Assembly (NCBI GenBank): GCA_029258835.1
Contig: JAPDJY010000035.1
Coordinates: forward strand, 77,302-141,301
Reading direction: 5' to 3'
Origin: Thermoproteota archaeon
Lineage (GTDB): Archaea; Asgardarchaeota; Jordiarchaeia; Jordiarchaeales; Freyrarchaeaceae
Length of the DNA: 64,000 bases
Position numbers and translations under genes: made by a program. The notes beneath the pieces are model-generated. The model saw nothing but the letters and a program-made list of their open reading frames with translations. It did no database searches and was not told the origin of the DNA. Of the stretch, positions 23,727-53,873 are shown one piece after another. Within the stretch, counting starts at the first letter, position 1. Each line of letters starts with the position of its first letter.

Positions 23727-24581
23727 GTGAAGGGATGGCTATTCGAAATCTTCTCCTCCTACCAATCCTTACTAAAATAAGGGGTGAAGGGGAGGGTGGA
23801 AGCGTAAAGGGGTCAAATTACGGGAAGCGGACGATATAGGCCATCCGAGGGGCCGTCGACTTATCCGCTTCTCGGGGTGTAACATATGGTTAGGAGAGTT
23901 TGGTAGGCGAGGGTGTGGGTGGTGCGACACCTTAAACGGCGCCAGACGCCCCACGCCGCTCAGCCTAAATCTGAATATTTGAAGATATCAACAGTTGAAG
24001 AAGGCATGTTTCAAGTGAAAAATCCCGTGGAGCCAGGACTAGTTGTAGAATACGTTAAACGTGTCCACTCACCAGATGTTCACGCGATTTCCCTGACAGG
24101 AGGGGAACCATTATTTCAACTAGAGTTCCTCGCTTCAATAATGAAAGCCCTTAAAGGGGAAGGATACAAAACATACTTGGAAACCAACGGTTCAATGCCG
24201 GAACGAATGGATAAAATAGCATTCTTAACAGACTATTGTTGCTGTGATATTAAAGATGAAACGGCAGGTGCAGCAGAAAACTGGAGACGGCTCGTTGAGC
24301 TGGAGCTAAAAACAATAAGTATACTTATAGATAATGGTGTCAGCGTCTTCGCTAAGGTTGTCGTTACTTCGGAGACGAAGCCTGAAAACGTTGAATGGTA
24401 TGCATCAAAGCTTTCAAGGATGGACTGCCCGCTATGTATTCAACCGGTAACGCCTATAAGGAATTATAGGCCGCCTTCACAACGCCAACTCTTCAGCTTC
24501 ACGGAGGCGGCAGCAAAACATCTTGGGAGCGATAATGTGGCCATATCTGTTCAAGTACACAAGTTTTTGGGTATACCTTAA
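23727..24581 (+). CDS. queE: 7-carboxy-7-deazaguanine synthase split by three BHB micro-introns; join(23727..23765,23789..23837,23861..23928,23946..24581), 263 aa
   Basis: GGAGG RBS at 23712-23716 and GTG at 23727. Spliced product MKGWLFEIFSSYQGEGGSVKGSNYGKRTIFIRFSGCNIWLGEFGRRGCGWCDTPHAAQ..., then SLTGGEPL, YLETNG, CDIK, CIQP, VQVHK. Operon with DUF366 and queD. Confidence 0.9.
23766..23788 (+). other. queE intron 1 (23 nt, BHB)
   Basis: Central helix TACC(23760-63)/GGTG(23783-86); bulges AA^T and AA^G; intron stem CCTTA/TAAGG; contains in-frame TAA; splice gives CAA|GGG = Q|G of SYQGEG. Confidence 0.88.
23838..23860 (+). other. queE intron 2 (23 nt, bulge-helix-loop variant)
   Basis: 11-bp exon helix CGGGAAGCGGA/TCCGCTTCTCG; central helix CGAT/GTCG; 5' bulge AT^A; 3' loop AC^TTA; intron stem GGCC/GGCC; splice gives T|TT = Phe of TIFIRFSGCN and removes a TAG. 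Confidence 0.88.
23929..23945 (+). other. queE intron 3 (17 nt, relaxed BHB)
   Basis: Exon helix GGTGTGGG/CCCACGCC; central helix TGCG/CGCC (3 of 4 pairs); bulges AC^A and AG^A; intron stem CC/GG; splice gives GAC|ACG = D|T of CGWCDT and restores frame. Junction could shift by 1-2 nt. Confidence 0.78.
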
Positions 24582-24595
24582 GGGGAGGCACCCAC

Positions 24596-25231
24596 TTGAA
24601 CTTGAAAAACTTGGAAGTAGTGGAACAGGCTCCTTTAACTGTGGCATTAGTTCCCTTTACTCATCATTTTCCATATACCGGAAGGGAAATAGCGCCGCTG
24701 TGGGCTCTGAAGACATTCGGCATACAGGGGGATTCCATAATCGTTTTCCGTGGTCCCCTTAGCGTTTTAGAGTCCGAACTCGTAGACGTGAAAGACCTTG
24801 TCTTTGAAGGAGGAAAAGGACGCCCTGTTATTTCGTCTAAGGATGCCATAAGCTTTATCATAGAACATTTTGATCAGCAACCACCATCTCTACGGCTAAT
24901 GTATCATAGACTTAGGATCATAGCGTTCCTTTTTAAGGAGCTTGCCGAGGAAAAATGCGGCTTAAGGCTTCAACGTGACGGTACAGACACATACTTTAAT
25001 GGAGGAAAACTTAACGTTGGGGTGGCAACAGTTTCCTCGGGATCCGGAAAAATCCATTTTGCAATAAACATTTCCGTTGAGGGAGCGCCTCCCGGAATCA
25101 AAGTAGCAAGCCTCCTAGACTTAGGCGTTAGCGAAGGTGAAGTCGAGTCGTTTGCTGTTTCCCTCGCTAAACGTTACAGGCGTGAGATACTAGACGTTGA
25201 GAGTGACGTTGCGAAATCTAAAACCTTCTAA
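24596..25231 (+). CDS. DUF366 family protein (lipoate-ligase-like; clusters with que genes)
   Basis: FGIQGDSIIVFRG, FIIEHFD, KLNVGVAT, KIHFAINI; lies between queE and queD. Confidence 0.8.
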   Translation: MNLKNLEVVEQAPLTVALVPFTHHFPYTGREIAPLWALKTFGIQGDSIIVFRGPLSVLESELVDVKDLVFEGGKGRPVISSKDAISFIIEHFDQQPPSLRLMYHRLRIIAFLFKELAEEKCGLRLQRDGTDTYFNGGKLNVGVATVSSGSGKIHFAINISVEGAPPGIKVASLLDLGVSEGEVESFAVSLAKRYRREILDVESDVAKSKTF

Positions 25232-25241
25232 GGGTGATAAG

Positions 25242-25703
25242 TTGCCCTACAGGCTTACGGTTGAAAGAGCAGACTTAACGTTTTCAGCTGCCCATTTCCT
25301 CCTCAAACATGAGAAGTGTGCCCGTTTACACGGTCATAACTATAAGGTTAGGGTGGAAGTTGCTTCCGACCTTTTAGATGGAAAACACATGGTGATCGAC
25401 TTCTTTTCCATAAGAGAGCTGGCTAGAAAGGCGTGCGAACCGTTGGATCATCGCGTTTTAATACCAGCTAAGTCTAATGAAATCTCGATTAAAGAATGTG
25501 AAAACGAGGTTGAAGTTGTTCTCACCGACCGGAGGTACGTTTTCCCCAGAAGCGATGTAGCGTTACTACCTTTAGAAGCCACAACTGTAGAAAAAATTGC
25601 TGAATATCTCTATGCGAAGATTAGGGAGAAGCTCCCGGAAGGTTTTAATCTTAAGGTCTCAGTAGAGGAAGCTGAAGGAGCTATAGCAACGTTTGAACTA
25701 TAA
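25242..25703 (+). CDS. queD: 6-carboxy-5,6,7,8-tetrahydropterin synthase (TTG start after GGGTGA RBS)
   Basis: FSAAHF, CARLHGHNY, MVIDF, LDH, TTVEKIA. Confidence 0.88.
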   Translation: MPYRLTVERADLTFSAAHFLLKHEKCARLHGHNYKVRVEVASDLLDGKHMVIDFFSIRELARKACEPLDHRVLIPAKSNEISIKECENEVEVVLTDRRYVFPRSDVALLPLEATTVEKIAEYLYAKIREKLPEGFNLKVSVEEAEGAIATFEL

Positions 25704-26531
25704 CTCCTCCAGAAAGACGAGTTTTAACTCCTGTATGCTTATCCTTTCTCCCCGCTTTAGCTTCTCCCTTATAGCTGCCGCTCTTTCCTTCATCATTTTC
25801 TTCTTTTTTCTCTCCTCTTCTTCTTTTCTTTTCTTCAATGCTTTATTATACAGCCGTCTATAAACGGCCTCCTCGTCTTCAAGCTTCACTAGCTCATTTT
25901 CTTTCTCAACGATCTTCCCAAAAACCTTTAAGAAGTTCTTATGTGCTTGCTCTGCCTGAGCCCTAAACTCCATCATTTTCTCCTGTAGCTCGAAGATTTT
26001 TTCATCAAGAAGCGCGATCCCCTCGCTTTTTTGCCTGATCTCGTCAAGAATCCTCTGTCTTCTCTTTTTAAGTTCTCCGATCTCTTCTCTCATCTTTTTT
26101 AACTTCTCCCAGATCTCGATTTCTCCCTCGAGCCTAGCGATTTCTTTTACTAGCATGTTTTCCTTTTCAAGAGGAAGCGGATTTGTCTGAATAACCCATT
26201 CTAACTCTTCGATCCTTTCTCTAACCCGCTTCTCCCGAATGGCAGATTCCTTTCTTGACTTATTCTTAATCTCCTCCGACAGAACTCTTATCCTTTCCTT
26301 AACCTTTTTCAGCTCTTCTTTAATTTCTTTAATTTCCTCAACCTTTCTTTGCCTTTTCTTTCTGAGCTCTCTTATCTCTTGGAGTAGCTTTTTAGCCTTC
26401 ATATTGCTTTTTTTTCTCGCTTCTTTATGTTTCTCAGCGTACTCCCGTAATCTTTTTAGTTCTTCCTGAACCTTTAGACGGTGCTTTTCGATCTCTGACA
26501 TTTTCGCCCTGTAAAATTCTTCAGTCTGCAT
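25698..26531 (-). CDS. Archaeal long coiled-coil protein
   Basis: K/E-rich heptads; IEELEWVIQTNPLPLEKE; C-terminal EKLKRGERISIQEL; ATG 26531 preceded by GGAGG. Confidence 0.7.
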   Translation of the reverse strand: MQTEEFYRAKMSEIEKHRLKVQEELKRLREYAEKHKEARKKSNMKAKKLLQEIRELRKKRQRKVEEIKEIKEELKKVKERIRVLSEEIKNKSRKESAIREKRVRERIEELEWVIQTNPLPLEKENMLVKEIARLEGEIEIWEKLKKMREEIGELKKRRQRILDEIRQKSEGIALLDEKIFELQEKMMEFRAQAEQAHKNFLKVFGKIVEKENELVKLEDEEAVYRRLYNKALKKRKEEEERKKKKMMKERAAAIREKLKRGERISIQELKLVFLEEL

Positions 26532-26649
26532 GTAATACTGGCCTCCATAGACAACTTTAATTACAACTTTAATTCTCAACTATATTAAAAAATCCTTGGT
26601 ACTCCAACTTGCCTTTCAACGAGATGTAGTTAAGACACTGGGGGGAATA

Positions 26650-27231
26650 ATGTTACGTCGAAAAGACTATTACTACGTTAAAGCCCGCAGAGAAGGGTAT
26701 AGGTCTAGGGCAGCCTACAAGTTAAAACAGATCGCTGTCAAGTTTAAAATCTTTCAGGACGTAAAGAAAGTGATAGATTTATGTTGTGCCCCTGGAGGAT
26801 GGCTTCAGGTGGCACGAGAGTTCGTGGGGGAAGAAGGGCAGATAATAGGGGTCGACTTAGTGGACATACGAAGTATTCCAAGCGTCACCTTTATCAAAGG
26901 CGACATACAAAAGGAGGAGACACTCCAAAGGATTTTAGAAGTTGCCGGTGAAGTTGATTTAGTACTAAGTGACTGCTCCCCCAAAGTGAGTGGGGTATGG
27001 TGTCTGGATCATGAACGGCAGATACAATTGGCTAGGGCTAGTTTAAACATTGCTAAGCACACGCTGAGAAAAGGAGGAACACTCGTTTTGAAGGTGTTCC
27101 AAGGATCAGAGTATACAACGATCCTCGAAGAAATACGTAAAAGTTTTCGGAAAGTCTACACCACTAAGCCCGCTGCTTCTAGAAGGCGAAGCGCTGAAAT
27201 GTACGTGATAGCGAAGTACTTTATGAAGTAA
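26650..27231 (+). CDS. rlmE: 23S rRNA Um2552 methyltransferase (RrmJ/FtsJ)
   Basis: YRSRAAYKL, DLCCAPGGW, LSD, KVFQG, KPAASRRRSAEMY. Confidence 0.92.
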   Translation: MLRRKDYYYVKARREGYRSRAAYKLKQIAVKFKIFQDVKKVIDLCCAPGGWLQVAREFVGEEGQIIGVDLVDIRSIPSVTFIKGDIQKEETLQRILEVAGEVDLVLSDCSPKVSGVWCLDHERQIQLARASLNIAKHTLRKGGTLVLKVFQGSEYTTILEEIRKSFRKVYTTKPAASRRRSAEMYVIAKYFMK

Positions 27232-27291
27232 ATTTTATGGTTTAGAGAGAGGTAGCTTGAAAAGAATGATAAAAAGTGGAGAGCAACATTG

Positions 27292-27639
27292 TTAGATCTT
27301 ACTAGCTTCCATGTTTATCCATTCCGTTAGTTTCCAGCACCGGATCGGAGAGATAGGTTGCCCTATGCCGCAGCGTGATATTTGTTTGCAGGTGAAGCAA
27401 GGACATCCGCCAAGTGTGTTCCATTTAACTTCCACATTTTCTTTTTCATTTGCGAAGATCCGGTAAGTCCATCTTCCCTTGTAGAGCTCTCTAAGCCTCC
27501 TTATAAGCCCTTTTTTCTCGAGCCTCATGGCAACCCTAGATCCTTCCCTACTATTTACGCCAAGCTTCCTCCACAGGTCGCTTTGAAGAAGTCCTTTTTC
27601 TCCTGCTTCCCGAATGATTTCGTAGGCCTTTTCTTCCAT
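27292..27639 (-). CDS. TFE-beta (archaeal RPC34/C39 homologue): wHTH plus C-terminal FeS cluster
   Basis: GLLQSDLWRKLG, GSRVAMRLEKKGLIRR, GRWTY, then CPCFTC..RC..ISPIRCWKLTEW. Confidence 0.8.
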   Translation of the reverse strand: MEEKAYEIIREAGEKGLLQSDLWRKLGVNSREGSRVAMRLEKKGLIRRLRELYKGRWTYRIFANEKENVEVKWNTLGGCPCFTCKQISRCGIGQPISPIRCWKLTEWINMEASKI

Positions 27640-27765
27640 TGGACTCCCTCACGGACAACATGGATAGAAAGCAATTAAAAAGATTTAGTTTTTAGTTTTC
27701 AGCTAACATTATAAAAAATAAAGAACCTTGTTTTTTCTTTCTAAAATTACTATTTTACTATTAAT

Positions 27766-29145
27766 TCAAAACGCTGCCAGCATTAGGATATCGTTAACGT
27801 TGGTTCCGGTTGGCCCAGTTACTATAAGTCCGTCACCTAACAATTCAAAGAAGCTTGTTGAGTCATGGCGTTTTAAAAAATCCTTAGCATTTAAACCCTT
27901 CCTTTCCCCCTTCCAAATCGTTCTTCCATCCACGAGTGCTCCTGCAGCATGGGAGAATCCGTCTATTCCGTCCGTGTCAAAGCTGGTTACAATCGCGTTT
28001 TTGATTCCAGACATTCTAAGCGCCGCACTTAAAGCAAGCTCTTGATTTCTTCCGCCTTTTCCTCCTTCCTTCTCGACGGTGACTGTTGTCTCCCCTCCCA
28101 TGATCATCAATGCAGGCTTTCGAAGCGGTTTTCCATAATATGCTAGGTCTTTCAGGATGCTTGCAGCTAAGCAGCCAACCTCCCTAGCTTCCCCTTCCAT
28201 ATGAGTTGTTAAAACCATCGAGTGCACCCCTCTCCTAGCAGCTTCACGAGCAACTTCATTACAAGCAATCCTGTTGGTTGCTATGAGGATATTGCTCACT
28301 CTCCGAAAGACGGGGTTTCCAGGCTTAGGGGTATCTGCAATTTTTCCTTCCTTACCCCTCTTAAGCAACGCTCTGACTTTACCGCTACACTTTTCCCATA
28401 TTCCATATTTCCTCAGGATTATTATAGCGTCGGAGAAGGATGTTGGGTCTGGAGCCGTCGGACCCGAAGAGACGTCTTCCAGCGCATCACCTACAACATC
28501 TGAGATTATTAAGCTTATAACCTTGGCTGGATGTGCATATTCGGCTAGCCGCCCACCTTTAATCTTAGAAAGATGTCTCCTTACAGTATTGACTTCTCCT
28601 ATTGTTGCCCCGCTTCTGAGAAGCAGCAGCGTGATTTCCTGCATTTCTTCTAACCCTAAACCATCGGCGGGCATGGCCATCAGAGCCGAGCCGCCTCCAG
28701 ATATCAAGCAGAATATGATGTCATTTTCTCCTGCTTTCTCGACTACCTTAAGTATTTCCCGTGCACAGTTAACACTCGCTTCGTCCGGAACAGGATGCTC
28801 CCCTTCGAGGAGCCTTACTCTCTTAACCCTGAATGTTCCGGCTGTACCGCGTTGAACACACACGACACCGCCACTTATGACATCCTTCAGGAGTTCCTCT
28901 AGGGCTTCAGCCATTGCTCCGCTAGCTTTACCCGCCCCAACAACGTAAACGTGCCCTACGTTCCTTAAAGACACACGTATATTTTTAACCCGGATAACTT
29001 CTCCGCTTAGTGAGACTGCGCGTCTAACGGCAACTCTAGGATCTGAAACTTTTATCGCTTTTTCAACCAGGTCTAAAATAAGACCTCGTGCTCTTCTTTC
29101 CTCACCATTAGCGGCATCTAAGAGGGATTCCCTGTTTTTTATCAA
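27766..29145 (-). CDS. Glycerate 2-kinase (MOFRL family)
   Basis: GAGKAS, HPVPD, LISGGGSAL, SKIKGG, SDVVGD, SGPT, GGETTV, GGRNQE, TDGIDG, TGTNVND. Confidence 0.92.
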   Translation of the reverse strand: MIKNRESLLDAANGEERRARGLILDLVEKAIKVSDPRVAVRRAVSLSGEVIRVKNIRVSLRNVGHVYVVGAGKASGAMAEALEELLKDVISGGVVCVQRGTAGTFRVKRVRLLEGEHPVPDEASVNCAREILKVVEKAGENDIIFCLISGGGSALMAMPADGLGLEEMQEITLLLLRSGATIGEVNTVRRHLSKIKGGRLAEYAHPAKVISLIISDVVGDALEDVSSGPTAPDPTSFSDAIIILRKYGIWEKCSGKVRALLKRGKEGKIADTPKPGNPVFRRVSNILIATNRIACNEVAREAARRGVHSMVLTTHMEGEAREVGCLAASILKDLAYYGKPLRKPALMIMGGETTVTVEKEGGKGGRNQELALSAALRMSGIKNAIVTSFDTDGIDGFSHAAGALVDGRTIWKGERKGLNAKDFLKRHDSTSFFELLGDGLIVTGPTGTNVNDILMLAAF

Positions 29146-29159
29146 AGCAAACCACCACT

Positions 29160-30563
29160 TTATAGGAGAAGCGATAATTCTTCTAAAGCCCGAAGGATCC
29201 TTTCTCCCTTCCGTGTCAACTTGAAGTATTTTCTACGTTTCCCAGTTATCTCTTCGATCAACCCTCTTGCTAAAAGATCCTCTAAGTGCTGATAGACTGC
29301 TTGAATGGAGAGGCGCTTTCCTAAAGCTTTCCATATTTCATAACCATAAGATTCTTCAACCTCGAGGAACCTTAATATTTCAAGCTTTGTTTTAAAGCCT
29401 CCCCTTGACCTCACCCCTCTCTTAGCGCCATTGGCCAAAGCGTCTATAACATATGGGTCCTTTAGCCCGCTGGCGGTAATCAGGCAAACAACGGTTTCAG
29501 AGGGATTTATTTCGCCATAATCTAAAAGCTTCTTGAAGCATGCTACTGATGCCGCACTGGCGGGCTCCGAGAAGATGCCTTCAGCCTTAGCTAGGATTCT
29601 TTCAGCAGTAATAATCTCCTCATCGGTAACTGTGACAACCTTCCCACCGCTCTCTCTTACAGCCTGCACCGCTAGCCCCCCATAAGCAGGGCTTGCAACT
29701 AAAAGACCTAAAGCTATGGTTTTAGGATTCTTAACCTTTCTCACTTCTATTTTTCCTTCCTCGCTGATCAGGGTGGCACATCCCTCCGCCTGAGCGAGCA
29801 CCATTCCCGGAGGGTCTTCGATTAAACTTAAAGCTAAGCATTCCTTCACGCCTTTCCAAATGGAATATGCTGTGTTTCCGGTTCCTGTGGGAACAATAAC
29901 CCAATCCACACCTTTCACTTTTTCAAAAATTTCATGGGAAATCGTTTTCTGCGCCTCAACTGAAAGCGGGTTAAGCTCAGGCGTGGCTTGATAAGACTTA
30001 GCGCCCATTTTCTCTGCTTCAACTATTGCTTCATCGATTGTGTCGCCATTTCTTAGAATTTTCCCACCGTAAATGTGCATCTGAGCTAGTTTTCCGACGT
30101 TAACCTCTTTTGGGGTTACGATGGTGCAACCCATCTTCACTTTAGCACAGTATGCAGCGGCGGCGGCTCCGAAATTACCGTGTGAAGCACACACAATGGT
30201 TTTAGCTCCGAGATCCAAGGCGTTAGATACTATTAATGAAGCCGCCCTATCTCTATATGAGCTAGTTGGATTAACAGACTCGTCTTTAAGGTAGATATGT
30301 CTTCCGCCGATCCTATGTGCAAGCTCCCGGGCTTCTCTAAGGGGAGTACCTCCTTCACCCATACTTACAATACATTTATCGCTTACAGGGGGGAAAATGC
30401 GGCGATACCTCCAAAGCCCCTTTCCCTTATCATACGGAGAAGGCAATTCCTCGTAATTGTAAGTGTAATCTAGAATTCCTCCGCATATATCGCATCTAGC
30501 CACGGGGGGAAACATATTTTTCCTTCTACCACAAGTGGTACACTGTAGCGAGACAGACGCCAA
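29160..30563 (-). CDS. Threonine-synthase-like fold-II PLP protein fused to a PadR-like wHTH; PLP Lys replaced by Arg
   Basis: N-terminal Zn ribbon, SMGEGGTPL, NPTSSYRDR, VPTGTG, EPASA; tail KLEILRFL..SYGYEIWK..VYQHLEDL..RRKYFKLT. Confidence 0.8.
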   Translation of the reverse strand: MASVSLQCTTCGRRKNMFPPVARCDICGGILDYTYNYEELPSPYDKGKGLWRYRRIFPPVSDKCIVSMGEGGTPLREARELAHRIGGRHIYLKDESVNPTSSYRDRAASLIVSNALDLGAKTIVCASHGNFGAAAAAYCAKVKMGCTIVTPKEVNVGKLAQMHIYGGKILRNGDTIDEAIVEAEKMGAKSYQATPELNPLSVEAQKTISHEIFEKVKGVDWVIVPTGTGNTAYSIWKGVKECLALSLIEDPPGMVLAQAEGCATLISEEGKIEVRKVKNPKTIALGLLVASPAYGGLAVQAVRESGGKVVTVTDEEIITAERILAKAEGIFSEPASAASVACFKKLLDYGEINPSETVVCLITASGLKDPYVIDALANGAKRGVRSRGGFKTKLEILRFLEVEESYGYEIWKALGKRLSIQAVYQHLEDLLARGLIEEITGKRRKYFKLTRKGERILRALEELSLLL

Positions 30564-30644
30564 CAGCGAACCCTCCTTCGCTTAAATCTTTATTTAGGAA
30601 GGAATGCAACAAAAAAATTACTTTAATAACTTGGAGGGACGAAA

Positions 30645-31175
30645 GTGCAAGGTGCACTGGGCAGCCTTCTCCTGCGCTCCCTTTTCCGTCTAGAGGAGCG
30701 TGAAGTACAAGTTATAGTAACGAAGAATATGCCTCAAATAGCATTGGATGACAGGGAAATAGGCCCCCTAATGGAGGGACAAACGGTATCCCTTCCGGTG
30801 TGGCAGGTGGCCCCCTTCATAAAAGCGAATGTAGTGCAGTGTAAACACGAGGAAGCCATTAACCTAGCGGAATTATATAATTACTTATGGAATGAAGAGC
30901 AGCAACCCCCCCTGCAGCCTCTCCCAGATGACTTTTACATACGACTAAAAATATTCATTGAATCCTCCTCCGAGGGTGACAGACGAAAAATAATCCCGGT
31001 CGTAAAAGACCTTCTCCTCAAAAGAGCTGAAAAGATCGTTAAAGCCGCCTTGAAAGCAGGACACACTAAAAAAGTATCAGAAAACATGCTCGGCGAAGAA
31101 AGGATACTTTACCAGCAACTAAGCAAGATGATAAGCCAGTGGCTAGCAACATTACATAACTTTTTAAATGTTTAA
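30645..31175 (+). CDS. GINS subunit (Gins23/Psf2-type)
   Basis: LPVWQ B-domain, LQPLPDDFY, KRAEKI, EERILY; immediately upstream of MCM. Confidence 0.75.
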   Translation: MQGALGSLLLRSLFRLEEREVQVIVTKNMPQIALDDREIGPLMEGQTVSLPVWQVAPFIKANVVQCKHEEAINLAELYNYLWNEEQQPPLQPLPDDFYIRLKIFIESSSEGDRRKIIPVVKDLLLKRAEKIVKAALKAGHTKKVSENMLGEERILYQQLSKMISQWLATLHNFLNV

Positions 31176-31214
31176 TGATAGAGCTATCATGAAGCTTCTA
31201 AAGGTGCCTTAACG

Positions 31215-33269
31215 ATGCTAATGGATCCACAGGAACGTTTTGAAACATTCCTGAAAGAGTATCGTTCAGAAGCTGGAACCCCCATTTACAGGGAGAAAAT
31301 AAACCAGTTAACAGTTACCGGGGACAGAAGCCTAATAGTTAACTTTAACCATCTTGTAGCGTTCGACCCAGAACTAGCAAGACGGACAATCCAGCATCCA
31401 GACCGCTTCCTCGCAGCAGCCAACCAAGCCCTAAGGAATATTCTTAAGCAAACAGATCCAGATTATTCGAGCAAAGTGGAGCGGCTCCACGTTAGACTCT
31501 CAAATTTCCCTGAAGAATACCATGTATCGCTAAGACGGCTAAGATCAGAACACATAGGCCGCTTAATAGTAATAAGTGGAATCCTGACACGTGCCACAGA
31601 AGTGAAACCCCGCCTTATCAAGGCAGTGTTTAAATGCCGTAGATGTGGAGAGCTAATAGCCATCCACCAAGAAGACCGAACCATAGTAACCCCTACAGAG
31701 TGCACGAACCCTAACTGTAGGCGTAGAGGCCCATTCGACCTTCAAATAGAAGAGTCGGACTTCATGGACTGGCAAAAAATAAGGATCCAAGAAAAACCTG
31801 AAGACCTTCCTCCAGGCCAATTGCCACGAAGCATTGATGCCACACTTACAGACGACATAGTAGATTTAGCCCGGCCAGGGGATCGCGTGACGATAACAGG
31901 GATCCTCAGGGCTGTTCCCGAAACGAGTACGAGAAAGGCAAAATTAACCACCTTCAGCACTATAGTGGAAGTCAATAACATAGAAACAGTGGGAGCGGAA
32001 TCTGAAAAACTCGAAATAAGCGAGGAGGACGAGGAGAAAATAACACAGTTAGCCCAAGACCCCTACATAATTCAAAAAATTATCCGTTCAATAGCTCCTA
32101 GCATTTACGGATATGAAACAATTAAAGAGGCGATAGCACTTCTTCTCTTCGGTGGAGTGCCCAAAGAGATGCCTGACAAGGTCAGGATCCGCGGAGACAT
32201 AAACGTGTTACTCCTTGGAGATCCAGGGGTGGGTAAGTCGCAAATCTTACAGTACGTTGCCAGAATAGCTCCACGAGGGTTATATACCTCAGGGAGAGGC
32301 GCTACAGCAGCTGGTTTAACCGCAGCTGTAATGAGAGATCCAGAAAGCGGGACAATGCTGCTCGAAGCAGGAGCACTAGTACTGGCTGACCAAGGTGTTG
32401 CATGTATTGACGAAATGGACAAAATGCGTGAGCAGGACCGGGTTGCCCTTCACGAGGCGATGGAAAGCGGGATGCTATCCATAGCTAAAGGAGGCATTGT
32501 AGCAACGCTTAACGCAAGAACATCTATTCTAGCAGCTGCAAACCCGGCTCTGGGACGTTACAACCCCTATAGGCCACCCTCTGAAAACTTTAGTCTTCCC
32601 CCAACGATTCTCTCTCGGTTTGACCTAATTTTCGTTTTAATCGATAAGCCTGCTAAAGAGCACGATGAACGAATGGCCAACCACATCCTTCACCTTCATC
32701 GCGAGTATTCCAGTGAGGAGCCTCCACCGATACCACCGGATCTACTAAGGAAGTACATTGCATATGCTCGGAGGAACATTAAACCAAAGCTTTCGTCGGA
32801 GGCCGTGGAGAAGCTGCGTGATTTCTACCTTGAGATGAGAAGCAAAGGTGAGCAACCTGACGCTCCAGTCCCCATCACAGCAAGACAGCTTGAGGCTCTA
32901 GTCCGGCTTGCAGAAGCAAGGGCGAAAATGGCGTTAAGGAGTGAAGTAACTGTTGAAGACGCTGAAGCGGCTATACGTTTAATGAAGGCATCTTTACAGC
33001 AAGTTGGACGTGATGTGGAGTCGGGGCTTTTCGACATCGATACAATTTACCTTGGTAGCCCTAAGAGTCAACGGGACAAAATGCAAGTTATCCTAGATAT
33101 TATTAGCGGTTTGGAAGCTGAGCTTGGTGGCCCAGTACCGGTTGAACGAATAATAAGTGAAGCGGCATCGGAGAATATTGACAGGAAATTTGTGGAGAGA
33201 GCTTTAAGCCGCTTCCTGAACGATGGTTTACTCTTTGAACCCAAGCAGGGGCATGTAAAACGCGTGTAA
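31215..33269 (+). CDS. mcm: MCM replicative helicase
   Basis: Zn finger CRRC..C..C, QEKPEDLPPGQLPR, GDPGVGKS, CIDEMDKM, AAANP, SRFD, TARQLE. Confidence 0.97.
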   Translation: MLMDPQERFETFLKEYRSEAGTPIYREKINQLTVTGDRSLIVNFNHLVAFDPELARRTIQHPDRFLAAANQALRNILKQTDPDYSSKVERLHVRLSNFPEEYHVSLRRLRSEHIGRLIVISGILTRATEVKPRLIKAVFKCRRCGELIAIHQEDRTIVTPTECTNPNCRRRGPFDLQIEESDFMDWQKIRIQEKPEDLPPGQLPRSIDATLTDDIVDLARPGDRVTITGILRAVPETSTRKAKLTTFSTIVEVNNIETVGAESEKLEISEEDEEKITQLAQDPYIIQKIIRSIAPSIYGYETIKEAIALLLFGGVPKEMPDKVRIRGDINVLLLGDPGVGKSQILQYVARIAPRGLYTSGRGATAAGLTAAVMRDPESGTMLLEAGALVLADQGVACIDEMDKMREQDRVALHEAMESGMLSIAKGGIVATLNARTSILAAANPALGRYNPYRPPSENFSLPPTILSRFDLIFVLIDKPAKEHDERMANHILHLHREYSSEEPPPIPPDLLRKYIAYARRNIKPKLSSEAVEKLRDFYLEMRSKGEQPDAPVPITARQLEALVRLAEARAKMALRSEVTVEDAEAAIRLMKASLQQVGRDVESGLFDIDTIYLGSPKSQRDKMQVILDIISGLEAELGGPVPVERIISEAASENIDRKFVERALSRFLNDGLLFEPKQGHVKRV

Positions 33270-33424
33270 CAGTGCGCTCTTTAATTCATTAATGGGATAT
33301 TTATTTAGTATGTAAACTCGTACTTTTCTCATTTTCCTCTTTGAATGGATAAAAGGGCGTCTAGTTTTCTGAAAAATAAAAAGGCTGAAGTTTTATATAA
33401 GGGAACTTAGGCATCTTTTCTGAG

Positions 33425-43649: not shown

Positions 43650-43715
43650 GGCTCCGATGAGGAGGACTCGGGATTCTGAGTTGCAAGTGATGAGCTCGCG
43701 CAGGCCTGAGGAGCC
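43650..43715 (+). ncRNA. C/D-box methylation guide sRNA
   Basis: Terminal stem GGCTCC/GGAGCC; C-like CCGATGA (43654-60), D' CTGA (43676-79), C' GTGATGA (43687-93), D CTGA (43706-09); 15- and 12-nt guides. Confidence 0.85.
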
Positions 43716-43764
43716 CTGCTCCTAATCTCCGGCCCTTCTGCATTTTTGCTTAATTTTTTTCTCT

Positions 43765-44109: not shown

Positions 44110-44184
44110 AACAAGCTTTCAAATTGAAAAAGTTAATTAAAACATAATAAACATTGCGATTGAAAGATGCTTACTGAACCATGT

Positions 44185-46034: not shown

Positions 46035-46037
46035 AGT

Positions 46038-47330
46038 TCAGAAAACATGGAGGAAAAGCTTAACCTTAACCCTTTCTCCCTCTTCGATTCCCTCAGCCTC
46101 TTCAGGGACTTCAAGCACTCCATCAGCTTTAGTCATGCTGCTAAGTATGCCCGAGCCAGCCACCCTTAGTGGAATTGCGATCAGTTTTCCATCTCTCTCT
46201 TCAAGTTTAACCCTAACAAAGTCCCTTCTACCGAGAGACGAGGGGACACGCCTAGCCAAAACTGCTTCTACAACTGGTCTGGGGTCTATGTTTTTCGCCC
46301 CAAGCATCGACCTTATCGTAGGGGCCACAATGCTTTCAAAAGAGATCATGGCAGCTACCGGAAAACCTGGAAGGCAGAAAACAGGTTTCTGGTCAACTAT
46401 GAACACAGCTGTTGGCCCACCCGGCCTAATGGTTATCCCGTGTGCAATGCATTCTCCCCCCATTTCTGCTATGACCTCAGGCATGTAATCGTACTTACCC
46501 ACGGAGGTTCCACCCGAGAAAACTGCTATGTCAAATTTTAGAGCTTCCTCCACTGTCCTCCTCAGCTTTCCCGGTTCGTCTGGTGTGACGCCTAGATATG
46601 TGGGCTCGCCGCCGTAGATTCTAGTTAGACCGGCTAACACGTATTCGTTAGAAGCTACTATCTGGCCCACCTTTGGCTCTTCATCAGTCTCAACAAGCTC
46701 ACTTCCGGTTGAAGATATTGCCACCTTTGGCTTCATAGAGACATTTACTTCGTTAATTCCGCATTGCAGAAGTAATCCTACTTCTTGGGGTCTTATCGTG
46801 GCGCCATCAGGCAACACGATGTCTCCTATCTTAACATCCTCGCCTTTACGCGAGACGTTTTGGTATGGTGTCACCGGCCTATAAACATGCACGTATCCTT
46901 CATGCACTGACGTGTACTCCACCATAACAACCGCGTCGGCGCCTTGCGGCATGGCTGCACCTGTAGATATGTGGACGGCCTCCCCTCGCTTAACCCTATG
47001 TTTCACTGGTTCTCCAGCGAGTGCTTCACCTACAATCTTTAGCTTTGCAGGGTTCTCCTGACTGCACCCGAAGGTGTCTTCTGCCACCACGGCGTATCCA
47101 TCCATAGCAGCCCTATCAAAATGAGGTACGTCTCTTTTGGCTTCTACGCTGCCATAGGCTATTCGGCCTAGAGCTGAAATGGTGGGTATCTTCTCAGGGG
47201 GCATACGCGCCACTTTCTTAAGGAGAGCCTTTAAGACGTCGTCTAGCCTTCTTCTTTCTTGGAAGCCCTTCATCCTAACGTGTTTAGGCTTCAACCAGCT
47301 ACCTCCAAATCGCTTTAGCTCACTCAACAT
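46038..47330 (-). CDS. moeA: Molybdopterin molybdotransferase (second paralogue)
   Basis: AAMDGYAV, STGAAMPQGADAVVMVE, STGSEL, SGGTSVG, RPG, LPGFP. Confidence 0.9.
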   Translation of the reverse strand: MLSELKRFGGSWLKPKHVRMKGFQERRRLDDVLKALLKKVARMPPEKIPTISALGRIAYGSVEAKRDVPHFDRAAMDGYAVVAEDTFGCSQENPAKLKIVGEALAGEPVKHRVKRGEAVHISTGAAMPQGADAVVMVEYTSVHEGYVHVYRPVTPYQNVSRKGEDVKIGDIVLPDGATIRPQEVGLLLQCGINEVNVSMKPKVAISSTGSELVETDEEPKVGQIVASNEYVLAGLTRIYGGEPTYLGVTPDEPGKLRRTVEEALKFDIAVFSGGTSVGKYDYMPEVIAEMGGECIAHGITIRPGGPTAVFIVDQKPVFCLPGFPVAAMISFESIVAPTIRSMLGAKNIDPRPVVEAVLARRVPSSLGRRDFVRVKLEERDGKLIAIPLRVAGSGILSSMTKADGVLEVPEEAEGIEEGERVKVKLFLHVF

Positions 47331-47877
47331 GGTATATTATATGGTTAATCTCTGGGAGGATAAGCTTGGTCAACGCTATGTGAGCCGCGTTAGGTGAGCC
47401 GGGGAGGCAAAAAACCGGGACGCCACGGTATATTCCTGCCTCGGCGCGCGTAAGCATGGCTGCAGGACCTATTTCCTTGTAGCTTTCAAACCTTAAAAGT
47501 TCACCAAACCCAGGTATTTTCTTCTCGAGTAAGGGTAAAACCGCCTCTACCGTTACATCGCGTTTAGCGAGGCCCGTCCCCCCTGAAGCAACCACGACAT
47601 CTACTCCCTTGCTAATTGCGGTGTTAATGGCTTTAACTATGGCTTTTTTCTCGTCTGGAACTACTATTCTGAACTTAACGCGGTGTCCTGCTCTTTCAAC
47701 TAGTTCCTTTACGATTGGGGTGGTCTCGTCTGTGCTTTCTCCTCCTTGTTTCTCTTCCTTATAGCGTGTATCACTAACTATTATGAGAGCAAAGTCTAGT
47801 TTTTTCTTTATTCTATGTTTGTGGTGGGTTGGTTCAGCTTTCAATTTATCCACCAGCTTTAGATTTACTGATGACAC
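47320..47877 (-). CDS. moaB: MoaB/MogA molybdopterin adenylyltransferase
   Basis: IVSD, VVPDE, GGTG..RDVTVEA, PGFGE, AMLTRA, LPGSP. Confidence 0.88.
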   Translation of the reverse strand: MSSVNLKLVDKLKAEPTHHKHRIKKKLDFALIIVSDTRYKEEKQGGESTDETTPIVKELVERAGHRVKFRIVVPDEKKAIVKAINTAISKGVDVVVASGGTGLAKRDVTVEAVLPLLEKKIPGFGELLRFESYKEIGPAAMLTRAEAGIYRGVPVFCLPGSPNAAHIALTKLILPEINHIIYHVE

Positions 47878-48289
47878 GTATTTCCTCTATCATTGTTTCA
47901 GGATACTGCCCCCTCTCGTCTTTTTCGTACTGTTTACACATATCCCAGACTGCTAACAGAGACGCAGATACGGCGGTTAACGCCTCCATCTCCACTCCTG
48001 TTTTTCCTATAGACTTAACAACAGCTTTCACCTTGACGAAGCTTCCACCTACATCCACATTTATGCTAATGCTGGTTATAGGTATTGGATGGCAAAGGGG
48101 AACTAATTCTGGAGTTTTCTTAGCGGCTAGGATCCCTGCTATCTGTGCAACTGCAATTACATCTCCCTTCTCGATCCTTCCTTCCTTTATTAGCTTAGCA
48201 GTTTCTGGTTTAAGCCTTATTTTTCCTTCTGCCTCCGCCATCCTGAAGACATCCTTTTTCTTTCCTATGTCGACCATACTCACATGCAA
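47846..48289 (-). CDS. moaC: Cyclic pyranopterin monophosphate synthase
   Basis: MVDI, KGDV, AAKKT..LVPLCH, TGVEMEAL, WDMCK. Confidence 0.95.
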   Translation of the reverse strand: MHVSMVDIGKKKDVFRMAEAEGKIRLKPETAKLIKEGRIEKGDVIAVAQIAGILAAKKTPELVPLCHPIPITSISINVDVGGSFVKVKAVVKSIGKTGVEMEALTAVSASLLAVWDMCKQYEKDERGQYPETMIEEIRVISKSKAGG

Positions 48290-48403
48290 TTTCCCAAACC
48301 TCTTTAGTTGTCAGGTGAGAAACAGTTAATGGTTAGATTTAAACTGTTTTTCCATAGGATTTAACTAAGGGAACATTTTACAGGATCCGTCGAGAGTAGA
48401 CTA

Positions 48404-49207
48404 ATGGAGGGAAGGTGCTTAAAAGTGTTCATTTTCCAGTTTGTAGGGGTAGAACGGCATACAGGTAAAACGTGGAATATAGTTCAATTGATACGTGCAT
48501 TTAGAAGTAAGGGATTGAGGGTTGGAGTGGTTAAGCATGCCCACGGTTACGATCCATCCTTTGATCTTAAAAGCGAGACGGCTGGTAAGGACACTTTACG
48601 GTTTATGGACGCTGGAGCGGTAGCTGCAGTTGCTGTAACTGAGCAGCTGACTGCAACGCTCACCGACGCTAAATCTTTAGATGAAGTAGTAAGGTCGTTA
48701 ATGCCGCTGGTGGATGTGGTTTTCTTGGAGGGTTTCAGGGAAATCGGCGGCTACCCGCGGGTTATCGTTGCTAACAGCGTCGAGGAAGTAACCAGCCTTA
48801 TCTCAGATAAGGTCTTAGCTGTGACGGGAAGCGTCGCTGAAACCAGTTTTGACGAGATTAAAGAATTATATCCTACGGTTACTGTGGCTAGAAATGTAAA
48901 TGAGCTAGTAACCGTACTTTACGAGTTCATGGTTGAAGAGGTGGCACGAAGGGTTGGAGGGAAAGGATGTGGAGTTTGTGGATACCATAACTGTGAAGAG
49001 TTTATTAGGGCTCTTAGAGCAGGGGGGGCTAAACCAACAATGTGCCCTCAAATATCGCCAAGAGTTATGATCTACCTTGACGGAGAAAGGCTTTCCATAA
49101 ACCCGTTTGTACAAAGCATCTTTGAAAACGTTTTGAAGGGTGTGTTAAAGACACTTAAAGGCGTAGGAAATCCTAAACGTATAGAGATAATAATAAATTC
49201 ATTTTAA
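48404..49207 (+). CDS. mobB: MobB with C-terminal FeS domain
   Basis: TGKT, VVKHAH, GKDT, LEGF; CGVCGYHNC..CP; NPFV. Confidence 0.8.
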   Translation: MEGRCLKVFIFQFVGVERHTGKTWNIVQLIRAFRSKGLRVGVVKHAHGYDPSFDLKSETAGKDTLRFMDAGAVAAVAVTEQLTATLTDAKSLDEVVRSLMPLVDVVFLEGFREIGGYPRVIVANSVEEVTSLISDKVLAVTGSVAETSFDEIKELYPTVTVARNVNELVTVLYEFMVEEVARRVGGKGCGVCGYHNCEEFIRALRAGGAKPTMCPQISPRVMIYLDGERLSINPFVQSIFENVLKGVLKTLKGVGNPKRIEIIINSF

Positions 49208-49218
49208 TTTTTTGAGAT

Positions 49219-50067
49219 ATGTTCATGTTCTTGGTGATTTTGTTGCGTTACGCTGTTAAATTAGCTTATCTTGGGACGAACTATTTCGGTTTTCAACGTC
49301 AGCCTTCTAAGGTTACTGTAGAGTCTGTTCTGTTAGAAGGGTTACGTAGGGCGGGGATGATAGGATCGGTTAGAGAGGCAAAGTATGCTTCAGCAGGAAG
49401 AACGGATAGAGGCGTTCATGCCGTTAGCCAAGTTATTGCGTTCAACACGGACAAGGAACCATGTCTTCCCGTGCTAAATGCGTTCCTTCCAAGGGATGTA
49501 TGTTGCTGGGCTTACGCTGAGGTGCCAGAAGAGTTTAACCCTAGAAGAGACGCCCTAGTGAAAACTTACAGGTACTACGCTGTTTGGAGAGGAGAGAATT
49601 TAAAAAGTATGAGGAAAGCAGCGTCCTTTTTAATCGGGACACACGACTTTAAGAACCTATGTAAGCCACGGGGAGGGGAGTCAACTGTTAGAACTCTTAA
49701 GGAAGTCAAGGTTGAAAAAGTCGGCATCTTTCTTTGCTTTACTCTTTCAGCTAGGAGCTTCCTGTGGAAAATGGCTAGGAAGATAGTTTCAGCTCTTCTC
49801 ATGGTTGGCAGAGGCTCAAAACCTCCCGAATTTATTACTCGTCTCCTAGACCCTAATTTTAAAGTCCAGGAAGGAGTGGAGCCGGCTAAACCTGAAGGCT
49901 TAATCCTATATGATATAATGTACCCTTTCGAGTTTAAGGTTTGTGAGAAAAGCAAGAGAACTTTCCTAAAATACTTGAATGAAATGCTTTATAGCACACT
50001 CACATTATCTGCCGTTTATGACACGTTACGGGAAAAGCTGTGCGGTTCTCCTCTTATTCTCCCATGA
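49219..50067 (+). CDS. truA: tRNA pseudouridine(38-40) synthase
   Basis: AYLGTNYFGFQRQP, AGRTDRGVHA, GTHDF, FLWKMAR, PEGL. Confidence 0.92.
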   Translation: MFMFLVILLRYAVKLAYLGTNYFGFQRQPSKVTVESVLLEGLRRAGMIGSVREAKYASAGRTDRGVHAVSQVIAFNTDKEPCLPVLNAFLPRDVCCWAYAEVPEEFNPRRDALVKTYRYYAVWRGENLKSMRKAASFLIGTHDFKNLCKPRGGESTVRTLKEVKVEKVGIFLCFTLSARSFLWKMARKIVSALLMVGRGSKPPEFITRLLDPNFKVQEGVEPAKPEGLILYDIMYPFEFKVCEKSKRTFLKYLNEMLYSTLTLSAVYDTLREKLCGSPLILP

Positions 50068-51313
50068 TTTCAAGGATCTCCTTAGCTCGTTCTTTTGACA
50101 CAATCCTCTCGATCATTTTTGCGTCTAAGTTAAGCCATTTTGCTATGGCAGCAGCGATTTGAGGGTTACATTCAAAGATGAACTTAAGATATGGGAGGTA
50201 GGAGGCGAGAGCTTCCTTGGTGGAAACATGACACTTTTCACCTATTTTTCCTGCTATGGATGCAAGAGCTTCCCGGTTAGCCTTTGCTACACTCATACTT
50301 TTAACCCAGCTTGGAAACTGATACTTCACGAACTTACCTTTAGAGAACTCCCTAGATAATGATACACCAGCAGACATTAAGGTGAAAACGTACGTTAATA
50401 ACCCCCAATGCTGCCTGTTTCTAATTCTTCCAAGAAAAACGTCAGCCCTAGACAGCATATCATACGCGTTAGCCAACTCTGCAGGATGCTGCATGTGTTG
50501 CCATGTGTTTTCACATATCCACTGCATGAGCAAACTATAATCCACGTCGGCAGCAGACACGGCTGAAATTATGGCTTTCGCGGTTTTACCGTGAAAAATG
50601 GCTCCAAGAACATCGAAGACACTTCTCTCTTGATCTCTTAAAGAAAGAATTTCCAAGTCTTCTATGGTGATTTTTCTTTTTCCTTCCGCTACTGCTTGAA
50701 GGTCGTTAATTGCAGCTCTCAAATCACCCCTAGCATTTTCAGCTATCCTTTTTAGGACTTGAGGCTCAGCTTCTACCCCCTCTTTCTCGCAGATTCCAGC
50801 TAAAACGCTAACCATGACATTCGACTTAACTTTGTTATACCTGACAAGCTCACAGTACTCCCTTAAGGCGGCAAGCCTCGGATCCCACGGGTCATTAGCA
50901 GTTAAAATCGTTGGGTAAGTCGTGTTCTTGAGTATCTTTACTAGTTCACTTATACCTCCTCGGTCTTCACTTCCACTTATCCCATCAACTTCATCAACCA
51001 GAATAATTCTTTTTTCTCCACCTAAGATTGATGAAAGAGAGGCGGCGGACCCAACCGTTTTCTGAAGTGCTTCGACGTTTCTCTTATCACTAGCATTAAC
51101 CTCGATTAAGTCGTAACCTAGCTCGTGAGCGACAGCGTAAACCGAAGCGGTTTTACCCACGCCAGCGGGACCCCAAAGAAGCAAGGCCCTAGGCTTCTGG
51201 TCTGGACGCCATTCCTTAACAAACTCCACGAGCCTTCTAACCGCTTTCTTATTTTCTACAACATCTTCTGATCTTCGAGGCGCATACTTCTCGCTCCACA
51301 GAATCCTCGCCAT
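50054..51313 (-). CDS. rfcL: Replication factor C large subunit
   Basis: WSEKYAP, GPAGVGKT, EVNASD, DEVDG, GDLRAAINDLQ. Confidence 0.93.
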   Translation of the reverse strand: MARILWSEKYAPRRSEDVVENKKAVRRLVEFVKEWRPDQKPRALLLWGPAGVGKTASVYAVAHELGYDLIEVNASDKRNVEALQKTVGSAASLSSILGGEKRIILVDEVDGISGSEDRGGISELVKILKNTTYPTILTANDPWDPRLAALREYCELVRYNKVKSNVMVSVLAGICEKEGVEAEPQVLKRIAENARGDLRAAINDLQAVAEGKRKITIEDLEILSLRDQERSVFDVLGAIFHGKTAKAIISAVSAADVDYSLLMQWICENTWQHMQHPAELANAYDMLSRADVFLGRIRNRQHWGLLTYVFTLMSAGVSLSREFSKGKFVKYQFPSWVKSMSVAKANREALASIAGKIGEKCHVSTKEALASYLPYLKFIFECNPQIAAAIAKWLNLDAKMIERIVSKERAKEILEIMGE

Positions 51314-51316
51314 CCT

Positions 51317-52288
51317 TTACCCACCAATTTGCGACCCTATATAGGAAAACTTTGCTAAGAGCGCACTAAGCTGGATTTCCTCGTTTGCACCTTCGCTCAT
51401 CCTAAAGTCTATTTCGCCCACTGTATCAGCCAGCTGAACCTTCCATTTTTCAGGAATATCTAAGTTAAATAGTTCCCTATGAATTTGCCTGACAACGTCT
51501 ATTCCAGAAAGACCGTATGAAATCAAAAGTTCATGAAGCCTTCTTCTTGCTTGAACAAAATTGCCCTTAAGGGCAAGCCCCAGCATCTCACGCACTTCTT
51601 CAGGACGTGCCTTACCGGTAACCATGAACACGGAATCCGAAGTGACAGGACCCCCCATAGCTGCTGCCGCCTGAAGCGTATTTATTGCCCGCCTCAAGTC
51701 GCCCTCGCACACGTAAAGGATCGCCTCAACGCCACCATCGTCGAGCTCAACCCCCTCCATCTCTGCTATGTAAACTAGTCGCCCTATGATGTCCTCCCTG
51801 CTAAGGGGTGAGAACCTGAATAGAGCACATCTAGACTGAATCGGTTCGATTATCTTACTTGAATAATTAACTACAAGTATAAACCTGCATGTTCTAGTAA
51901 ACCGCTCCATCGTCCTTCTTAATGCTTGCTGTGCTTCCTGAGTTAATGCATCAGCTTCATCTAAAACGAGAATTTTAAATGGCACATCACCAAGAGGCAT
52001 CGTTCTAGCGAAATCTTTCACGACTCCTCTAATAACATCGATGCCCCGCGCATCACTTGCATTTAACTCGAGAAAGTTCCCCTGGAAATGCTCCCCGAAC
52101 AGATCATGTGCCAAACATAGTGCAGCAGTCGTTTTTCCTGTTCCTGGAGGCCCCGCAAAGAGACAGTGTGGCATATCTCCTTTATCAACAAACATCTTAA
52201 GCCTTGAAACTATCTCTTTTTGATTAACCATGTCACTGAGAGTTCTCGGACGGTATTTTTCAGTCCACATTAACGCCTCCTCACTCAA
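51317..52288 (-). CDS. rfcS: Replication factor C small subunit
   Basis: [44 protein letters not shown]. Confidence 0.95.
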
Positions 52289-52405
52289 ATGATATCACCC
52301 CGGTTCAAAAGTTAACATTTGTAAGGCGCTCCCTCCACCTTACACTCATCATCCCATTCTTCCCTTTAAACTCTAAAGGTCCTAGGCTTTTAAGGTTAAA
52401 GCTCC

Positions 52406-53338
52406 TTAAGTGAAAAAACTATCAATCTTGCTTTTGTCATTATATCTTACGATGGTAAGATCACCACGTAAAAAGTCTAAGAGCTTTAATGCTTCCTGTA
52501 TTCTTCCCTCGATTCCCCCCTCCACCCTCGCCTCGCAAAAAATAGCGACTTTGTGGAGGTACCTCTGCTCTCTTAAAACCGACAGGAAAAGCTTCCAAGG
52601 AACCCCGCCACTCTTAAGAGCTGTATGCTCCTTTTCCCCCCTCCTTGTAACCACAATACCTGATAGATGAATAGGTAATTTATATTTGCTTAGGTCTATG
52701 TAAGCATCTATCAATTCAAGGCGACGTAAGATTCCCTCCTTTAATGTTACAAGACCTCCACGGGCGTAGTCATGAGCAACATCCCAGCAAAAAAGGCAGC
52801 CGACTTCCCCTGCAAGTTTAACCAAAGTCTCGAATCCTGCAAAATTTCCTTTCTTACCTGCAACTTCAGGAGCCGGCATGGTAACATATCCTTCCTCCTC
52901 TTTTTCTTTCATGACATTTCTCAGGAAATTCTTGACCCTCTCCTCGGCTTGCTTCCTTATAGGACCACAGTGAAACGTTAAATGGTTTGCAGATAAAATG
53001 TTACCTAACTTAAAGCATACTGTGAAATGTGCTTTGGATAAACGCTCCCTCTTCCTGTTACCAGAAGTTAATACGACCGTATATGGGGCGTGAAGCCCTA
53101 CTAGCAATCCCTCGAAAAGGTCACGCACAGCTTTTACCTGGTTGACTGAAGGATAGGTTACTTCCTGACTGCCAGGTTTGACGTAGAGTCTACATTTCGA
53201 GAAAGAAAGCTCGACAACCGTTAATCCACTATTCCTTAAACATTTAGAAAGGGTCTCTAAGGAGGCTTTCTCGGTAAACCTTGTAAAAGGATAGCCTGCA
53301 ACTCCTACAAAAAGCAAAAGCACCAGCTCCACGTTCAC
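52406..53338 (-). CDS. Endonuclease IV-like TIM-barrel protein
   Basis: GVAGYP, LHAPY, FHCG, PEVAGK, WDVAHDYAR, HLSG, GEKEH. Confidence 0.7.
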   Translation of the reverse strand: MNVELVLLLFVGVAGYPFTRFTEKASLETLSKCLRNSGLTVVELSFSKCRLYVKPGSQEVTYPSVNQVKAVRDLFEGLLVGLHAPYTVVLTSGNRKRERLSKAHFTVCFKLGNILSANHLTFHCGPIRKQAEERVKNFLRNVMKEKEEEGYVTMPAPEVAGKKGNFAGFETLVKLAGEVGCLFCWDVAHDYARGGLVTLKEGILRRLELIDAYIDLSKYKLPIHLSGIVVTRRGEKEHTALKSGGVPWKLFLSVLREQRYLHKVAIFCEARVEGGIEGRIQEALKLLDFLRGDLTIVRYNDKSKIDSFFT

Positions 53339-53477
53339 AGTAACCGTTATTAACGAGGAAGAAGGCGTTAAATATAAAAGAATCGTTATGCTTTCAACAT
53401 TAGAAACATCGAAGCATAGTTTTTAAATGTTTTTATACGTGAAGTCGTAATTGCTTAACCGTCTACTCACTAAGTTA

Positions 53478-53492
53478 GAGAAAACTTATATC
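53478..53492 (+). promoter_or_regulatory. BRE/TATA of the SRP RNA gene
   Basis: GAGAAAACTTATATC lies about 27 nt upstream of the SRP RNA 5' end. Confidence 0.6.
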
Positions 53493-53517
53493 TTGTTTTT
53501 TAACTACTTTATTACTT

Positions 53518-53873
53518 GGGCGGTGGGTCTAGGCGGGCTGCTAGGGGTAGCCTGACGGAGGGTTTATCCCTCCTGACCGCAAATCCTCTATATGGCGGGC
53601 CGAAAGCCGGCGTGAGGCACCTCCAACCCGCTGTTTTGCCCTTCACGTTAAGGCGATGAAAACTCGTCCCGGAGGGCTGGCGGTGGCCGTCCACTCTCCG
53701 TAGGGAGGGTGTGTTCGGCCTTTACCAGGGGAACCGGCTAGGCCCGGGAGAGCGGTGGATGCCTCGATGGAGCACCCTAACCCTGGACGTTCAGTGCTTC
53801 CGGGAGCGCGGGTTTGAGACCAAACGTGAAGGGGGTAGTGGGAAGGAGTGTCGAGCGCCGGGACCCACCGCCC
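53518..53873 (+). ncRNA. ffs: Archaeal SRP (7S) RNA, intron-containing
   Basis: GC-rich; helix 1 GGGCGGTGGGTC/GACCCACCGCCC; Alu loops TAGGGG/CCTCTA; CGATGA..CTCGTCCC; helix 6 with GTAG tetraloop; helix 8 AGGCCC...GGAGCA. Confidence 0.93.
53751..53768 (+). other. BHB intron (18 nt) in SRP RNA helix 8
   Basis: Central helix CGGG(53745-48)/CTCG(53763-66); bulges AG^A and AT^G; intron stem GCG/TGC; splice yields AGGCCC-GGGA-GGGAGCA. Confidence 0.82.

Follow-up and report, generated by a model that had tools for sequence, protein, structure and literature searches.

Why are two conserved genes in one stretch of archaeal DNA broken by inserts of 17 to 23 nucleotides (nt)? The stretch analysed (the window) is 64,000 nt of contig JAPDJY010000035.1, from an Asgard archaeon. 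It carries the gene for QueE (23727-24581, + strand), which is interrupted three times, and the gene for the signal recognition particle (SRP) RNA (53521-53870, + strand), which is interrupted once in helix 8. The inserts are very probably archaeal bulge-helix-bulge (BHB) introns which are removed by EndA and RtcB, and they are part of a genome-wide population of such introns. The anatomy of the inserts, restoration of the products, positional conservation with covariation, the enzyme genes and the genome-wide spread are all seen here.

The genome is a metagenome-assembled genome of 2.72 Mb in 91 contigs (G000). It belongs to family f1; f1 and its sister family f2 are two families of one order. 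A strict BHB motif was defined as a 4-bp central helix with two flanking 3-nt bulges, and a relaxed motif as one bulge, the helix and a loop. Under the rule applied, positions -6 to -3 of exon 1 pair with positions -6 to -3 of the intron, and the cut site lies after the second base of each 3-nt bulge. Motifs are scored below by the base pairs in the central (H), outer (h) and inner (h') helices.

Interruptions in QueE

QueE begins with GTG at 23727, after which the open frame passes from 1 to 3, to 2 and back to 1; the three changes fall within 220 nt. Removal of inserts of 23, 23 and 17 nt leaves an open coding sequence of 792 nt. Residues 1-262 of the 263-amino-acid (aa) product align with uninterrupted QueE from Helarchaeota, Heimdallarchaeota, other Asgard archaea and Thermococcus, at 43-49% identity (E 1e-74 to 1e-90). 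The alignment is free of gaps at every junction (SSYQ|GEGG, RTI|FIRFSGCN and WCD|TPHAAQ). This full-length similarity to proteins named QueE, which includes the N-terminal QGEG box and the cluster cysteines, identifies the gene; the exon-4 open reading frame (ORF) by itself scores under the NCBIfam cut-offs. QueE is single-copy in this genome.

The inserts are found in the QGEG motif, in the residues preceding FIRFSGCN, and directly after CxWCD. Exon 1 (23727-23765) carries the GTG start and VKGWLFEIFSSYQ in frame 1, and relatives start alike. Intron 1 (23766-23788, 23 nt) has the central helix TACC/GGTG, bulges AA|T and AA|G, a 5-bp inner hairpin (CCTTA/TAAGG) and a 3-bp outer helix, and scores H4/h3/h'5. 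Exon 2 (23789-23837) carries GEGGSVKGSNYGKRTI and the first base of a Phe codon. Intron 2 (23838-23860, 23 nt; H4/h1/h'4) has the central helix CGAT/GTCG, the 5' bulge AT|A and the inner hairpin GGCC/GGCC. An outer helix of 8 bp is also available to it; this is offset by 2 nt and would leave a 3' bulge of 5 nt if formed. The minimum-energy fold reproduces the BHB motif of intron 2.

Exon 3 (23861-23928) carries FIRFSGCNIWLGEFGRRGCGWCD with the cysteines of the radical-SAM cluster. Intron 3 (23929-23945, 17 nt) is a relaxed BHB (H3/h1/h'2) with the central helix TGCG/CGCC and its 5' site in a loop. In most relatives all four central pairs form at this site. Its boundary can slide by up to 2 nt with no change to the mRNA. 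Exon 4 (23946-24581) runs from TPHAAQPK through the stop codon.

Two sets of alternative boundaries were rejected. A 41-nt intron at 23874-23914 has a good BHB score, but it would remove the radical-SAM cysteine motif. Other boundaries for intron 3 (lengths of 20, 32 and 35 nt) are excluded by the relatives and by intron-less homologs, which fix the junction at WCD|(S/T)P.

The QueE proteins deposited for Jordarchaeales/Freyarchaeota (P0002-P0016) are 175-251 aa long; the homologs of the relatives among them have 200-251 aa and lack the N-terminus. The deposited proteins start inside or past the interrupted region; public annotation thus truncates these genes.

The interruption in the SRP RNA

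The SRP RNA gene matches Rfam model RF01857 over its full length (1-317) with 145.6 bits against a cut-off of 96.5, and is the sole copy in the genome. Two stretches of it are treated as insertions by the model. The intron (53751-53768, + strand, 18 nt) lies in the 3' strand of the helix-8 apical stem, just past the GGGA tetraloop. Its BHB motif has the central helix CGGG/CTCG and bulges AG|A and AT|G (H4/h1/h'3). Removal of the intron gives AGGCCCGGGAGGGAGCA, identical to the uninterrupted genes of three other genomes (G014, G016 and G030).

An extra hairpin is found in the Alu domain (53557-53573, + strand), between helices 3 and 4 and flanked by CCTGAC repeats. It is common to f1, f2 and one further genome (G018), and its stems covary. 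It was considered as a fifth BHB intron and rejected: no consistent BHB register could be found across 10 sequences. It is probably a structural expansion.

Features common to the four inserts

All four inserts are too short to hold an ORF, and their mutual similarity is no greater than chance. The original prediction had described them as four introns of 17-23 nt at two loci, unrelated in sequence and without an ORF, each in a highly conserved motif and each with BHB anatomy. The exact sizes are 23, 23, 17 and 18 nt, the motifs are the three in QueE and the helix-8 tetraloop stem, and the central helices and bulges are in place. QueE sites 1 and 2 and the SRP site each form all four central pairs, and QueE site 3 forms three of the four.

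The first bulge base is A in all eight bulges of these introns. Among 15 verified introns in the genome, 13 begin with A and eight end in AA. The preference for A at the start of bulges and introns may reflect recognition by the endonuclease of this lineage.

Conservation among relatives

QueE was recovered from ten relatives (four in f1, six in f2), giving 11 genes for comparison; SRP RNA genes were recovered from eight, giving nine. All three QueE sites are interrupted in 10/10 relatives; the inserts measure 20-26 nt at the first site, 18-30 nt at the second and 15-30 nt at the third. Some of these lengths are not multiples of three, and several inserts which are in frame carry a stop codon (TAG in several cases at site 2). 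In three other Asgard families (f4, f5 and f9), the four genomes compared have an uninterrupted QueE and read through WCDSPxAQ. Similarly, helix 8 has an insert of 18-32 nt in 9/9 SRP genes of f1 and f2, and is uninterrupted in the seven other Asgard families with a readable helix-8 motif.

The inner stems of the inserts vary in sequence yet remain paired, for example as CCTTA/TAAGG, CTTCC/GGAAG and TCCCCC/GGGGGA. Among relatives, neither the exon-side helix nor the A-first bulges change. The introns of Cbf5 and PCMT (see below) likewise keep their structure while sequence and length drift. As far as sequences can tell, this shows that selection acts on the RNA structure and not on the sequence of the insert.

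The lineage-wide spread that had been suggested for the inserts was borne out, as the same four sites are interrupted throughout the recovered relatives. Introns common to f1 and f2 comprise the four in QueE and SRP RNA plus those in PCMT and Cbf5; being shared by both families, they are older than the f1/f2 split. An active process of intron gain by reverse splicing had also been proposed. The QueE and SRP introns, all of them old, lend it no support; signs of turnover are confined to other loci. DnaG has its intron in f1 only, and the AhcY intron (TKWE|FDN) is found in this genome and in f2 but is missing from three genomes of the sister genus g2. These differences in presence and absence indicate that both gain and loss occur. 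The DnaG match in f2 ends at query residue 250, where there may be another interruption.

A single lead bears on the origin of new introns. The pattern CCTTACT...TAAGGG..GGTGAA is common to QueE intron 1 and the cbf5 intron, and the similarity score of this pair is 13 against a maximum of 12 in 200 shuffles, which do not preserve hairpins. The likeness may reflect copying of one intron from the other, or a common structural constraint.

Splicing enzymes and proposed pathway

Two EndA paralogs are encoded in the genome, of 190 and 308 aa and 32% identical. Each consists of an N-terminal domain and a catalytic-type domain. The 190-aa protein has the Tyr/His/Lys pattern; the 308-aa protein has Ala at the His position. 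The pair would fit a heterotetrameric (alpha-beta)2 enzyme, a type known for relaxed BHB recognition (PMC4731332, PMC5829648). RtcB is also encoded (606.9 bits).

From the gene sequences we infer both cleavage with ligation and the identity of the enzymes responsible. Local folding of the primary QueE and SRP RNA transcripts would place each boundary in a bulge, beside a 4-bp helix in which the last bases of exon 1 (-6 to -3) pair with the 3' end of the intron. EndA, as a catalytic and a non-catalytic paralog together, would then cut past the second bulge base on both sides, and RtcB would ligate the exons. A complete radical-SAM 7-carboxy-7-deazaguanine synthase would be encoded by the spliced QueE mRNA only, and the canonical SRP54-binding tip of helix 8 would be present in the spliced SRP RNA only. 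On this explanation the introns belong to a genome-wide population whose hosts, in this Asgard order, also include tRNAs, RNase P RNA and protein genes by the dozen.

BHB introns elsewhere in the genome

Most tRNA genes of the genome are interrupted (ARAGORN and Rfam); ARAGORN found no tRNA within the 64-kb window. Counts of the BHB motif are a poor guide to introns in other genes. Loose matches number 110,521 genome-wide and 110,948 in a mirrored control, with no excess, and neither an ORF-joining filter nor a first codon-usage filter produced a BHB excess over that control. A stricter filter kept only sites with A first in the bulge and an inner helix of 4 bp or more, where the flanks are open and show codon bias and the frame is interrupted before splicing. 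Under it, 91 ORF-joining BHB sites were found against 57 in the mirrored control (98 against 59 at another setting). The stricter filter missed 5/5 independently known introns, so its count is a lower bound only; the true number of introns is probably several times the excess of ~35. The total motif excess of ~590 is spread across all lengths, with only the 24-35 nt bins standing out, and most of it is read as a composition effect.

Candidates were checked by scanning the two halves separately against Pfam. The original prediction had anticipated more apparently frameshifted genes, and ten further protein genes and RNase P RNA were found to be interrupted by BHB introns, most of the protein genes with Pfam continuity over the junction. 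Pfam positions on the two sides are 2-59 and 61-208 in PCMT, 2-48 and 49-100 in a SelD-like AIRS protein, 1-31 and 33-161 in a Rab-like GTPase (Ras), and 1-80 and 93-139 in an FAD oxidase (FAD_binding_4). In AhcY (AdoHcyase), positions 1-216 are followed across the junction by positions 1-161 of the NAD domain. The same interpretation fits an HdrD-like ferredoxin, an aconitase-like gene and GatE. In DnaG, a 31-nt intron lies within GAIFGQ|LEGLLG, and the BHB rule restores the motif.

In Cbf5, the catalytic GTLDP motif is split by an in-frame BHB intron of 27 nt (contig C27, 11929-11955). The intron falls between bases 1 and 2 of the catalytic Asp codon (GTL|D|P), and its removal by the BHB rule restores GTLDP. 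Every f1 and f2 genome has it, as do G021 (f13) and G028 (f16); G014, G018, G020 and G024 lack it.

The RNase P RNA gene (contig C25, 33524-33911, minus strand; 176.9 bits) contains a canonical BHB insert of 19 nt at RNA positions 115-133, between GCAGAA and ACGAC (GCAG aa|...CTGC aa|). A second insert of 25 nt, before CUCAACAGAAGG, does not fit the BHB rule.

The range of hosts bears on a proposal that the QueE and Cbf5 introns are a regulatory device, coupling the capacity for tRNA modification to the activity of the tRNA-splicing enzymes. Both proteins act on RNA, and both genes are interrupted in every examined genome of the order. However, like introns are found in PCMT, AhcY, DnaG, GatE, the Rab-like GTPase, the FAD oxidase and the ferredoxin-like protein. 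Hosts are thus not confined to RNA modifiers, and individual introns come and go. The coupling is improbable, and the link to tRNA modification is unneeded when the same introns occur in unrelated housekeeping genes.

Retention or removal of the inserts

The inserts might instead be kept in the mature RNAs. In that case helix 8 of the SRP RNA would be expanded by an insert that it tolerates, and QueE would be produced by ribosomal frameshifting, by bypassing or as fragments. The Alu-domain hairpin in the same SRP RNA resembles just such a retained expansion, and the insert at QueE site 3 is in frame and free of stops in some relatives. However, decoding QueE in this genome would take three +2 shifts in a row within 200 nt. 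Across relatives the inserts are free to change in length, yet the BHB helix and bulges are conserved. The SRP insert disrupts the stem beside the SRP54-binding tetraloop, a stem which is invariant in other families. Retention is therefore very unlikely. That the genes are decaying pseudogenes or assembly errors, as their truncation by gene callers might suggest, is barely credible: the same interruptions recur in 10 independently assembled genomes, the protein sequence of the exons is conserved, SRP RNA is an indispensable molecule, and same-site inserts in relatives together with single-copy genes rule out both.

Several points weigh against removal by BHB splicing. The BHB of QueE intron 3 is weak in this genome, with three of four central pairs and an inner helix of 2 bp; protein alignment and the relatives are the main basis for the boundaries of this intron. 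The outer exon-exon helix has just 1 bp at three of the four sites. Some inserts in relatives (e.g. site 3 in G002 and G009) are in frame and stop-free, and are translatable in principle. Splicing of QueE and SRP RNA is a prediction from DNA. Finally, the BHB motif by itself is not rare in the genome; the case for BHB introns therefore rests on comparison and on restoration of the products, not on motif counts.

Relation to known systems

In the literature searched, BHB splicing of archaeal mRNA has been published only for crenarchaeal cbf5 (Watanabe 2002; Yokobori 2009, PMC2738675). The likeness to the present introns is close: the crenarchaeal intron is also a short BHB intron at the catalytic motif of a protein gene, it needs the tRNA-splicing machinery, and it differs in length among species, in some cases staying in frame. 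In this genome, cbf5 has its intron at the position given for Crenarchaeota (PMC2738675). The system described here differs in its host (QueE), in having three introns per mRNA, in affecting many unrelated genes, in belonging to an Asgard lineage and in the smaller size of the introns (17-23 nt).

A second comparison is offered by multi-intron tRNA genes in Freyarchaeia and Atabeyarchaeia, which represent the lineage studied here or a sister to it (Valentin-Alvarado 2024, PMC11291895; bioRxiv 10.64898/2026.10.13.758758). In the sister lineage Freyarchaeia, 92-95% of tRNA genes bear introns (PMC11291895). These introns have BHB anatomy, occupy non-canonical positions, occur several to a gene and have been gained repeatedly. 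Unlike the present case, both papers concern tRNA genes only; a text search of them found no mRNA or SRP RNA introns (PMC11291895; 10.64898/2026.10.13.758758). A search of the literature on Asgard mRNA or SRP introns returned tRNA work only.

The only SRP RNA in the literature searched that depends on BHB processing is encoded by the circularly permuted gene of Thermoproteus (Plagens 2015, PMC4731332). There too, function requires BHB cleavage and ligation by RtcB (PMC4731332). In contrast, the gene in the window is collinear and has a plain 18-nt intron in helix 8; there is no permutation, and circularisation is not needed. Plagens et al. proposed an ancestor with simple BHB introns for the permuted SRP RNA (PMC4731332), and the present SRP RNA would represent this postulated stage.

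Enzymatic splicing of archaeal mRNA has so far been treated as a curiosity of one gene, cbf5. Judging by its genome, cut-and-rejoin RNA splicing seems routine in this Asgard archaeon: one mRNA would need three EndA/RtcB splices, and the essential SRP and RNase P RNAs one each. A broader proposal is made tentatively, and may well go too far. It holds that genes of the Jordarchaeia/Freyarchaeia order are generally expressed by way of EndA/RtcB splicing, with probably at least 100 BHB introns in mRNAs, SRP RNA, RNase P RNA and tRNAs, which are still being gained and lost and which settle wherever constrained exon sequence can supply the central helix. If so, a prokaryotic relative of eukaryotes already had pervasive introns in protein genes and obligatory mRNA splicing. 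The cbf5 intron, at the same base as in Crenarchaeota, would either be older than the Asgard/TACK split or mark a hot spot which is hit repeatedly.

Current gene calls for these genomes are systematically wrong (truncated, 'frameshifted' or missing), and metabolic reconstructions are affected as a result. The system makes it possible to test how introns colonise protein genes, why conserved motifs host them, and whether splicing of mRNA demands a relaxed coupling of transcription and translation.

Other features

QueD lies 600 nt downstream of QueE. On another contig of the genome (C51, minus strand, strand positions 4745-4764) there is a candidate 20-nt BHB insert (GGCC ac|...GGCCAC|t). It follows CASCEGP in a small Cys-rich ORF, which its predicted splicing would lengthen.

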